A DNA stretch of 64,000 nucleotides, from assembly GCF_003334305.1 (NCBI RefSeq), contig NZ_QOWS01000007.1; one strand, written 5' to 3'. Source of the stretch: Escherichia coli. Its GTDB lineage: Bacteria > Pseudomonadota > Gammaproteobacteria > Enterobacterales > Enterobacteriaceae. Of the stretch, positions 1-22,991 are shown in pieces (the stretch's first letter is position 1; every line of letters starts with the position of its first letter). The position numbers and the translations under genes were made by a program. A model generated the notes under the pieces. That model did not search any database, was not told the origin of the DNA, and worked only from the letters and a program-made list of their open reading frames with translations.

Positions 1-76
1 GGGTGATTAGCTCAGCTGGGAGAGCACCTCCCTTACAAGGAGGGGGTCGGCGGTTCGATCCCGTCATCACCCACCA
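1..76 (+). tRNA. tRNA-Val, anticodon UAC
   Basis: 76-nt cloverleaf-compatible sequence ending CCA; anticodon loop cuUACaa. Matches the E. coli tRNA-Val(UAC) of the valU-valX-valY-lysV cluster; which copy cannot be told from the window. Confidence 0.93.
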
Positions 77-80
77 CTTC

Positions 81-156
81 GGGTCGTTAGCTCAGTTGGT
101 AGAGCAGTTGACTTTTAATCAATTGGTCGCAGGTTCGAATCCTGCACGACCCACCA
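81..156 (+). tRNA. lysV: tRNA-Lys, anticodon UUU
   Basis: 76-nt tRNA 4 nt after tRNA-Val, anticodon loop acuUUUaau, ends CCA; co-transcribed arrangement with tRNA-Val. Confidence 0.92.
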
Positions 157-160
157 ATGT

Positions 161-188
161 AAAAAAGCGCCCTAAAGGCGCTTTTTTG
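161..188 (+). terminator. Rho-independent terminator of the tRNA operon
   Basis: A-tract, 6-bp GC-rich stem agcgcc/ggcgct with 5-nt loop, then TTTTTT, directly after tRNA-Lys. Confidence 0.85.
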
Positions 189-275
189 CTATCTGCGATT
201 TGTAAGATTGATTTTTCTTCTCAAGTTCCTTGTTCTTCTACCGATATTACCTCGTACAGTGACGAGGACTGAACA

Positions 276-617
276 ATGGCCACTATCTCTTCAACTTCAA
301 TTCCTTCCATACAAACACAGAGTAGTAACAGGGCATCACAAGGTAGCGATGTTGCTTCACAAATCGCGCGGATAAGTCAGCAAATCATCAAACTCACTCA
401 ACAAATTAAAGAGATTGTAGACACTAGCGGCAGTGCTGAAGACAAGCAAAAACAGGCCGAATTGATTCAACAGCAAATCACCCTACTGGAAACACAACTG
501 GCGCAGTTGCAGAAACAGCAGGCAGAAAAGGCGCAGGAGAAAGAGCAGTGTTTGTCTCTGAATGTATCCCTTCTAAATCCTGTTGAAAAAACGACTCATA
601 TCGATATCTATATCTGA
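276..617 (+). CDS. FlxA-like small Gln-rich coiled-coil protein (113 aa)
   Basis: ORF with Q/K/E-rich heptad-like core ([13 protein letters not shown]...[22 protein letters not shown]) resembling the FlxA family as I recall it; 3' end overlaps the yfeR 3' end by 10 nt convergently. Family assignment is from memory. Confidence 0.55.
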
Positions 618-2838: not shown

Positions 2839-4863
<2,025 letters not shown>

Positions 4864-20257: not shown

Positions 20258-21682
<1,425 letters not shown>

Positions 21683-21686
21683 TATC

Positions 21687-22991
21687 ATGAAACGGACAAT
21701 GCTCTATCTTTCTCTGCTGGCTGTTAGTTGTAGCGTCAGCGCCGCAAAATACCCTGTTCTGACAGAAAGTTCGCCAGAGAAAGCAGGGTTCAACGTCGAA
21801 CGGCTTAACCAGATGGATCGCTGGATTAGCCAGCAAGTGGACGCCGGTTATCCCGGCGTAAACCTGCTGATCATTAAAGATAATCAGATTGTGTATCGCA
21901 AAGCCTGGGGAGCGGCGAAAAAGTACGATGGCAGCGTGTTGATGGAACAGCCTGTCAAAGCCACCACCGGGACGCTGTATGACCTGGCCTCAAACACCAA
22001 AATGTACGCCACGAACTTCGCCCTGCAAAAGCTGATGAGCGAAGGCAAACTGCATCCTGACGATCGGATTGCGAAATATATTCCGGGGTTTGCCGATAGT
22101 CCAAATGACACCATCAAAGGCAAAAACACGCTGCGGATTTCTGACCTGCTGCATCACAGCGGCGGTTTCCCGGCGGACCCACAATATCCGAATAAAGCGG
22201 TCGCGGGCGCGTTATATTCCCAGGATAAAGGCCAGACGCTGGAGATGATCAAGCGCACGCCGCTGGAGTATCAGCCCGGCAGCAAGCATATTTACAGTGA
22301 TGTCGATTATATGCTGCTTGGATTTATCGTCGAGTCGGTCACCGGTCAGCCGCTTGACCGCTATGTTGAAGAGTCGATTTATCGCCCGCTCGGCCTGACA
22401 CATACGGTATTTAACCCGCTGCTGAAAGGCTTTAAACCGCAGCAAATTGCCGCCACGGAATTGAACGGCAATACCCGCGATGGCGTGATCCATTTCCCGA
22501 ATATCCGCACCTCCACTCTCTGGGGTCAGGTGCACGATGAAAAAGCCTTTTATTCGATGGGCGGCGTTTCCGGGCACGCAGGTTTGTTTTCCAATACCGG
22601 CGATATTGCGGTGTTAATGCAAACGATGCTGAACGGCGGGGGCTATGGCGATGTGCAGCTGTTCAGTGCGGAAACGGTGAAGATGTTCACCACCAGCTCT
22701 AAGGAAGATGCCACTTTTGGCCTCAGCTGGCGCGTGAATGGTAATGCCACCATGACGCCGACGTTTGGCACGCTGGCAAGCCCGCAAACCTACGGTCACA
22801 CTGGCTGGACCGGAACGGTGACCGTTATCGATCCGGTGAATCATATGGCGATTGTGATGTTAAGCAACAAGCCACATTCGCCGGTTGCCGATCCGCAAAA
22901 GAATCCCAATATGTTCGAAAGCGGTCAGCTGCCGATTGCAACGTATGGTTGGGTAGTTGATCAGGTGTATGCGGCGTTAAAGCAAAAGTAA
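21687..22991 (+). CDS. yfeW: Penicillin-binding protein 4B (serine beta-lactamase-fold DD-peptidase)
   Basis: Signal peptide plus SxxK motif (SNTK); start placed at MKRTMLYLSLLAVS 5 nt after the murP stop rather than the track's overlapping extension. Confidence 0.9.
   Translation: MKRTMLYLSLLAVSCSVSAAKYPVLTESSPEKAGFNVERLNQMDRWISQQVDAGYPGVNLLIIKDNQIVYRKAWGAAKKYDGSVLMEQPVKATTGTLYDLASNTKMYATNFALQKLMSEGKLHPDDRIAKYIPGFADSPNDTIKGKNTLRISDLLHHSGGFPADPQYPNKAVAGALYSQDKGQTLEMIKRTPLEYQPGSKHIYSDVDYMLLGFIVESVTGQPLDRYVEESIYRPLGLTHTVFNPLLKGFKPQQIAATELNGNTRDGVIHFPNIRTSTLWGQVHDEKAFYSMGGVSGHAGLFSNTGDIAVLMQTMLNGGGYGDVQLFSAETVKMFTTSSKEDATFGLSWRVNGNATMTPTFGTLASPQTYGHTGWTGTVTVIDPVNHMAIVMLSNKPHSPVADPQKNPNMFESGQLPIATYGWVVDQVYAALKQK

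Follow-up and report, generated by a model that had tools for sequence, protein, structure and literature searches.

The 64-kb stretch of Escherichia coli DNA analyzed here (contig NZ_QOWS01000007.1; hereafter, the window) begins inside the valU tRNA operon, and the subject of this report is the small gene lying between the end of this operon and yfeR, which codes for a LysR-type regulator. The 451 bp from tRNA-Lys to yfeR (157–607) contain one small open reading frame (ORF), 276–617, designated here flxA-like. The coding ends of flxA-like and yfeR are convergent and have 10 bp in common (608–617). Both the interval of about 450 bp with a single small ORF and the convergent overlap with yfeR had been noted in the original prediction, made from the sequence before any database was searched, and both proved correct. 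Beyond yfeR, the genes yfeH, ypeB, and ligA follow.

The product had been predicted to be a FlxA-like coiled-coil protein, and the search of its 113-amino acid (aa) sequence suggested at the time returned a significant match to the FlxA family. The best match in Pfam is FlxA, PF14282 (independent E-value 2.6e-13, 50.4 bits), covering residues 15–91 of the protein and positions 4–81 of the 101 positions of the model, and BLASTP aligns the protein with FlxA of E. coli K-12 at 42% identity and 66% positives over 74 aa (E = 1e-11). Its database homologues carry precomputed PF14282 assignments, and the RefSeq protein with 100% identity, WP_000201411.1, is already named “FlxA-like family protein”; the DNA of strain A7 is also 100% identical. 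NCBIfam contains no dedicated family model, and the protein found there coiled-coil matches only, all far below the cut-offs.

A HMMER search of 1.84 billion representative proteins identified 74 relatives, and the family alignment comprised 71 members. Their common architecture begins with M-T-T-I, followed by about 20 residues rich in Ser, Thr, and Gly, a Gln-rich coiled-coil core with the consensus LQAQLAQLQRQQAE, and a variable linker that often precedes an EGVNxPS..HQ motif. The C-terminus, IDIY[IV], is invariant-like, with D110 and Y112 nearly invariant in the alignment. The protein encoded in the window fits the typical length of about 100–120 aa, and comprises a Ser/Thr-rich N-terminus (residues 1–23), a Gln-rich helical hairpin (24–49 and 54–96) and a tail ending in IDIYI. 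The AlphaFold2 model, built with the 71-sequence alignment, has a mean predicted local distance difference test score (pLDDT) of 64, with helices at 24–49 and 54–96 and disordered ends; the pLDDT of residues 1–23 is below 50. Across the 71 members, the N-terminal 24 residues consist of Ser and Thr to 46%, and about 5% of them are charged. Both a sequence search of the PDB and a Foldseek search of the PDB with the AlphaFold2 model found generic or designed coiled coils and no solved relative. A match to the FliJ-family protein CdsO (E = 0.9) was not significant and was discarded.

Proteins of low complexity rich in Gln, Lys, and Glu draw many weak matches, as seen in the 29 Pfam domains with E ≤ 10 and in the NCBIfam matches below cut-off, and the ORF might in principle be a chance open frame in the spacer that owes its Pfam match to coiled-coil composition alone. 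This merits practically no credence. FlxA is nine orders of magnitude ahead of the next-best Pfam domain, and the likeness to the family extends beyond the coiled coil to the M-T-T-I start, the IDIY[IV] end and the length of the protein. The ratio of nonsynonymous to synonymous substitution rates (dN/dS) is far below 1, at 0.02–0.18 between the orthologues in Kluyvera, Enterobacter, Citrobacter, Buttiauxella, and Cedecea; as judged from these values, the protein is under constraint in other genera. A promoter and a Shine-Dalgarno sequence are, moreover, conserved at a fixed distance from the gene. The comparative data thus already refute a chance ORF. With good confidence in the explanation taken as a whole, ORF 276–617 is a genuine protein-coding gene of the FlxA family, and flxA-like is a chromosomal, syntenic member of this known but functionally unexplained family.

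The promoter in question is a predicted target of FliA (sigma-28). The window was scored with a position weight matrix (PWM) derived from 49 FliA motifs obtained by chromatin immunoprecipitation sequencing (ChIP-seq; Fitzgerald et al., PMC4183435, Table 2). The site at 221–248 reached 16.3 bits, which ranks second among about 128,000 positions of the window and exceeds 61% of the leave-one-out training sites. It has the form TCAAGTTC-N11-ACCGATAT (221–247), compared with the FliA consensus TAAAGTTT-N11-GCCGATAA. A strict search for this consensus with at most three mismatches missed the site, which has four, and gave one chance-level match elsewhere; the PWM was used instead. Decisive was the comparative test: a site of at least 14 bits ending 24–33 nt 5' of the ATG is present in 56 of 59 orthologous loci (27 nt in the window), against a background, in the same loci, of 1.3e-5 per position or about 1.3e-4 per locus over the 10 allowed positions. 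According to the per-column information, TCAAGnT and GCCGATA alone are conserved, and the spacer is free. The gene flxA of K-12 has the same promoter geometry, its motif ending 21 nt 5' of the ATG; FliA is bound there (FAT score 16), and expression falls from 280 to 2 upon deletion of fliA (PMC4183435). On the strength of the conserved FliA promoter, flxA-like is predicted to belong to class 3 (late) of the flagellar regulon. This promoter assignment, a prediction, is the new part of the analysis.

Immediately downstream of tRNA-Lys, a stem-loop with flanking A and U tracts was found by RNA folding (−20.2 kcal/mol, z = −4.66, with none of 200 shuffles as stable), and the alignment with K-12 and HS revealed the same sequence in both. 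It is the likely terminator of the tRNA operon, and flxA-like would therefore need a promoter of its own. A simple terminator scan and a sigma-70 promoter scan of positions 1–1700 found nothing; the former probably overlooked the hairpin because the A and U tracts pair and lengthen the stem. Transcription of flxA-like would thus start at its own sigma-28 promoter 3' of the operon terminator and, as for K-12 flxA, would follow the export of FlgM that frees FliA. The predicted 5' leader also contains an inverted repeat, CCTCGT (250–255)/ACGAGG (262–267), whose 3' arm overlaps the Shine-Dalgarno sequence GAGGA, and which is retained in Pseudocitrobacter with a wobble change. The features of the locus are listed in Table 1.

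Table 1. Features between the valU operon and yfeR, with positions in the window.
Feature	Position	Strand	Basis
tRNA-Val (anticodon TAC), third Val tRNA of the valU operon	1–76	+	ARAGORN; Rfam tRNA, 65.9 bits; RefSeq record of strain A7, identical at this locus
tRNA-Lys (anticodon TTT/UUU), lysV, last gene of the tRNA operon	81–156	+	ARAGORN; Rfam, 79.2 bits
Stem-loop AAAAAAGCGCC-CUAAA-GGCGCUUUUUU, likely intrinsic terminator of the tRNA operon	159–189	+	RNA folding
Left edge of the segment differing from the K-12 arrangement	204–208	.	MAFFT alignment of window, HS, and K-12
Predicted FliA (sigma-28) class-3 promoter	221–248	+	PWM score and conservation in orthologous loci
−35 element TCAAGTTC, 11-nt spacer, −10 element ACCGATAT	221–228; 240–247	+	Parts of the predicted FliA promoter
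Shine-Dalgarno sequence GAGGA, 7 nt 5' of the ATG	264–268	+	Read from the sequence; kept in HS, EC6868, and Pseudocitrobacter
flxA-like coding sequence, 113 aa, 12.5 kDa, pI 5.3, ATG start	276–617	+	ORF list; Pfam PF14282; RefSeq WP_000201411.1
Right edge (606/607) of the variable segment and 10-bp overlap with yfeR (608–617)	607–617	.	Megablast; K-12 alignment
yfeR, LysR-type regulator, convergent neighbor	608–1534	−	ORF list; RefSeq annotation

For the comparison across genera, one genome per species was scanned with a 9-sequence alignment as the query, a first, broader alignment having been too diverse. The scan returned 60 loci from more than 20 genera, including Pseudocitrobacter, Kluyvera, Pluralibacter, Enterobacter, Lelliottia, Leclercia, Citrobacter, Buttiauxella, Kosakonia, Siccibacter, Trabulsiella, Silvania, Cedecea, Phytobacter, Winslowiella, and others. 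The gene adjoins a convergent yfeR, followed by yfeH-ligA, in 54 of these loci. In four more, from Siccibacter and Trabulsiella, yfeR is missing, and yfeH and/or ligA is next instead; flxA-like of Siccibacter lies close to ligA, with no yfeH detected, and that of Trabulsiella adjoins yfeH. Wherever the flank was available, tRNA-Lys was located 115–650 bp 5' of flxA-like. Orthologues of Pseudocitrobacter, Kluyvera, Enterobacter, Citrobacter, Buttiauxella, Cedecea, Yokenella, and others share the locus, promoter geometry and architecture of the window gene.

The modules around the gene vary. The order lysV-xapR-xapB-xapA-flxA-like-yfeR occurs in Citrobacter amalonaticus and several Enterobacter species. 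In Silvania confinis the xap genes stand between flxA-like and yfeR (flxA-like-xapR-xapB-xapA-yfeR), and S. hatchlandensis has a remnant of xapA; Buttiauxella massiliensis has a yfeN homologue 5' of flxA-like. Judging by gene order, flxA-like is the long-standing resident of the locus, beside which the modules xapRBA and yfeN were acquired and lost. As flxA-like is constant and xapRBA and yfeN are variable across genera, the K-12 state would therefore be derived.

The convergent spacing of flxA-like and yfeR, from overlap to a gap of about 18 bp, is kept in most genera, and P. faecalis has the identical 10-bp overlap. The yfeR genes of Escherichia and Pseudocitrobacter are about 87% identical to each other, and those of other genera 70–76%. 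This tight arrangement, together with the overlap of the coding sequences and the absence of a terminator-like site from the scan of 1–1700, could mean that the main output of the gene is a regulatory RNA, with FliA-driven antisense read-through into yfeR coupling the yfeR/yfeH regulon to flagellar status. We regard this as improbable. In other genera the protein is under strong purifying selection, which implies that the coding function matters, and flxA-like is kept in Siccibacter and Trabulsiella without yfeR and is separated from it by xapRBA in Silvania. Antisense read-through is at most a side effect.

Within E. coli, the lysV–yfeR interval proved as variable as the original prediction had supposed, and the pan-genome comparison proposed there resolved two states. 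In a survey of 5426 complete genomes, flxA-like without xap genes is present in 1318, as a single copy with 96.4–100% identity, and tRNA, flxA-like and yfeR are contiguous in all but one of these carriers (1317). The block of K-12, xapR-DUF1427-xapB-xapA-yfeN, is found in 4061 genomes. The two counts sum to 5379, and the states are essentially mutually exclusive alternatives, flxA-like being held by about 24% of complete E. coli genomes and the xap block by about 75%, K-12 included. Along with the window, the carriers of flxA-like include HS, BL21(DE3) and O157:H7 EC4115. K-12-type genomes, with the order lysV-RtT-xapR-DUF1427-xapB-xapA-yfeN-yfeR, bore out the statement in the original prediction that in K-12 the xapRBA and yfeN genes stand between lysV and yfeR.

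The K-12 genes xapR-xapB-xapA-yfeN replace window positions of about 205–606, and the right edge lies one base beyond the stop codon of yfeR. In the MAFFT alignment of the window, HS, and K-12, identity continues through “gctatctgcgatttg” and is lost from about 204–208. At the other end, the megablast match of genomes with the K-12 arrangement begins exactly at 607, in agreement with the K-12 alignment. No leftover FliA promoter was found 5' of yfeN in K-12, where the best score was 7.6 bits. Among the matches listed, the xap block itself apparently forms two deep haplotypes, about 99–100% and about 93% identical to K-12, and both states at the locus therefore look old within the species. According to the proposed scheme, flxA-like would be the ancestral resident, kept by about 24% of E. 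coli and replaced by xapR-xapB-xapA-yfeN in about 75%.

Two further observations concern this interval. A 156-bp RtT-like tandem unit, which opens with the final 18 nt of tRNA-Lys and contains the terminator hairpin, is absent from the window, BL21, and O157, occurs once in K-12 (2401–2556 of its locus) and twice in HS (1393–1674; compare window 139–200); its copy number is independent of whether flxA-like or xap comes next. In E. coli HH45 (locus positions 3347–4735), an unannotated stretch of 1.1 kb with homopolymer runs and duplicated locus fragments lies between lysV and a FlxA-like pseudogene. This stretch, with three weak copies, was rejected as a biological variant, the assembly being noisy and indel-ridden and the gene called as a pseudogene.

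The original prediction had suggested that, tRNA genes being common integration sites, the ORF may be a remnant or alternative cargo at a variable locus. Spelled out, it would have arrived with a mobile element integrated at tRNA-Lys, as the alternative to a xap island, and K-12 would represent the original state. The interval is indeed variable within E. coli, with presence or absence of genes directly 3' of a tRNA gene as in tRNA-associated genomic islands, and the GC content of the ORF is low (0.43, compared with 0.53 for the window). K-12 FlxA is prophage-borne, and the flxA-like protein matches phrog_11044 (E = 1.6e-7). This reading is not supported. Unlike such islands, the locus has neither an integrase nor an attachment (att) repeat, and the gene that seems inserted is a conserved resident. 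No integrase or other mobility gene is encoded within the 451 bp, which contain the 113-aa ORF and short overlapping frames only. The proposed search for an att-like repeat of the tRNA end showed that the 25-nt 3' end of tRNA-Lys occurs once in the 64 kb with up to three mismatches allowed, and a repeat search gave only a 14-nt, 86% match at chance level. What recurs of the tRNA 3' end in K-12 and HS belongs to the tandem RtT-like 156-bp unit and is no att site; nor is the right breakpoint, which coincides with the stop codon of yfeR. The gene occupies the same position and orientation beside yfeR in more than 20 genera, and is not absent from this site in related species. Integration of a mobile element is thus largely refuted already, and we consider it very improbable.

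Movement of the segment between genera is evident from a Pseudocitrobacter metagenome-assembled genome (locus L004). Its intergenic and flxA-like segment (637–1097, corresponding to 157–617 of the window) is 93% identical to E. coli and 84% to P. faecalis, and its yfeH and ligA are 91–92% identical to P. faecalis and 80–83% to E. coli. A segment at 93% within a background of 80–83% could be taken in favor of mobility. Such movement, however, resembles homologous replacement between conserved flanks rather than site-specific integration, and the segment is a cross-genus recombination tract.

Among the known systems closest to flxA-like is K-12 FlxA itself (b1566; PF14282), which is located in the Qin cryptic prophage; its description by Ide and Kutsukake (1997) is cited in PMC4183435 and PMC6551532. 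Beyond the similarity over 74 aa and the FliA-type promoter close to the ATG, the two proteins are alike in length (110 and 113 aa), in the Ser/Thr-rich N-terminus, in the Gln-rich coiled coil and in the C-terminal IDIY[VI], and neither has a known function. They differ in that K-12 FlxA is prophage-borne and the window gene occupies a conserved chromosomal site beside yfeR in many genera. K-12 FlxA is a distant paralogue, a K-12-FlxA-like representative reaching only E = 4e-4 in the whole-library search, and dependence on FliA was shown experimentally for K-12 flxA and is predicted for the window gene.

The flxA-like product would be acidic, with a mass of 12.5 kDa; its Ser/Thr-rich N-terminus would be disordered and followed by a two-helix hairpin rich in Gln and by an IDIY(I/V) tail. 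FlgK, FliD, FliC, FlgL, and FlgM are late flagellar export substrates. With these class-3 proteins flxA-like has in common a sigma-28 promoter, here predicted, and a layout in which helical coiled-coil segments come after a disordered N-terminus. No homology to any of them was found in sequence or fold. We know of no cognate chaperone for FlxA-type proteins. The N-terminus, disordered in the model, rich in Ser and Thr and low in charge, could suit a type III export signal, though it is no specific mark of one. In the exoproteome of a culture containing E. coli, the paralogue FlxA was quantified beside FlgK, FliD, FliC, FlgL, and FlgM. At 42°C, with flagellar export impaired and FlgM retained, protein and mRNA of flxA changed in opposite directions (PMC6551532). 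In the reading preferred here, although it is less likely than not, proteins of the FlxA type would be late substrates of flagellar type III export, or accessories of its apparatus, and non-essential; alternatively, they could act as cytoplasmic coiled-coil partners of flagellar proteins. Rather doubtful is the broader proposal of an overlooked conserved enterobacterial flagellar component, driven by sigma-28 and exported through, or acting at, the type III apparatus, whose ancestral copy lies between lysV and yfeR and which went unstudied since K-12, where xapRBA-yfeN took the place of that copy, kept the prophage paralogue only.

Several observations weigh against a maintained flagellar gene with a role of this kind. 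The same exoproteome contained cytoplasmic proteins, such as CheY. The text of PMC6551532 gives no direction for the discordance of FlxA at 42°C, and both of these observations concern the Qin-prophage paralogue only. The structure and PDB searches yielded nothing beyond generic coiled coils. Salmonella and Klebsiella lay outside the comparison, neither appearing in the lists of YfeR homologues or in the cluster names. Dependence of the window gene on FliA is predicted from its sequence, and the alleles of the window and HS have A instead of G at the first position of the −10 element, ACCGATAT being weaker than the GCCGATAT of EC6868 and Pseudocitrobacter; an A at this base does occur in real FliA promoters, e.g., those of ycgR and fliD (PMC4183435). 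The top PWM match of the window, moreover, is not this site. It is located at 22073–22100 on the plus strand (18.2 bits, GAAATATATTCCGGGGTTTGCCGATAGT), with a good −10 and a poor −35 element, inside ORF 21600–22991 (pbp4b/yfeW). It has no counterpart among the K-12 FliA ChIP-seq peaks of PMC4183435, the K-12 sequence at that place not having been compared, and a PWM match alone can therefore be a false positive.

A further objection comes from the alleles of E. coli. The four compared (window, HS = BL21, O157, and EC6868) have 12 nonsynonymous and four synonymous segregating sites, a pattern close to the neutral expectation. Among the changes are R92C in the window allele and, in O157:H7, D110G within the IDIYI motif. 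Within E. coli, and between E. coli and the closest Pseudocitrobacter allele, dN/dS is about 0.55–0.6, compared with the 0.02–0.18 found elsewhere. The Escherichia/Pseudocitrobacter clade further differs from the orthologues of other genera in its degenerate EGVNxPS..HQ motif and in its G+C content at third codon positions (0.43, against about 0.60). The E. coli alleles thus look relaxed in constraint, and E. coli may be able to do without the gene; such relaxation fits its loss from most strains of the species.

A rival reading follows, in which the E. coli gene is a decaying relic of a functional flagellar-regulon gene: 75% of strains would lack it, and its alleles would drift, because it is no longer useful in the Escherichia/Pseudocitrobacter lineage. 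The G-to-A change in the −10 element of the window and HS alleles is in line with this, as are the 159-aa frameshift variants in public assemblies. These variants form two clusters, of 23 and 11 member sequences, and arise at an A-run at 587–592 (codons 104–106), from which the +1 frame continues across the end of yfeR; either genuine frameshift alleles or errors of assembly could account for them. The ORF is, however, intact and annotated as a coding sequence in all five loci read (A7, HS, EC6868, BL21(DE3), and O157:H7 EC4115), and the sole pseudogene seen is that of the noisy assembly. E. coli and P. faecalis, between which dN/dS is 0.18, have kept the promoter, the Shine-Dalgarno sequence and the core of the coiled coil in common, and the polymorphism sample is tiny, with 16 sites. 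On balance, decay of the E. coli gene is rather unlikely.

Overall, what was already known is an annotated small gene at a known polymorphic site, and in this respect the finding is mostly ordinary, even if the term “FlxA-like” occurred in no paper in a full-text literature search. With flxA-like as the conserved resident, the xapRBA-yfeN state of the K-12 reference is the derived one, and the reference strain hides the gene. Phylogenetic footprinting assigns an orthologous group of uncharacterized proteins from more than 20 genera to the predicted FliA class-3 regulon. BL21(DE3), a carrier of flxA-like, is presumably without the fli region including fliA; if so, it would provide a natural fliA-null control among the carriers, with HS and O157:H7 also bearing the gene. 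Should FlxA proteins indeed be substrates or accessories of flagellar export, a function would be found for a gene that is among the last in E. coli to depend strongly on FliA and yet lack an explanation.

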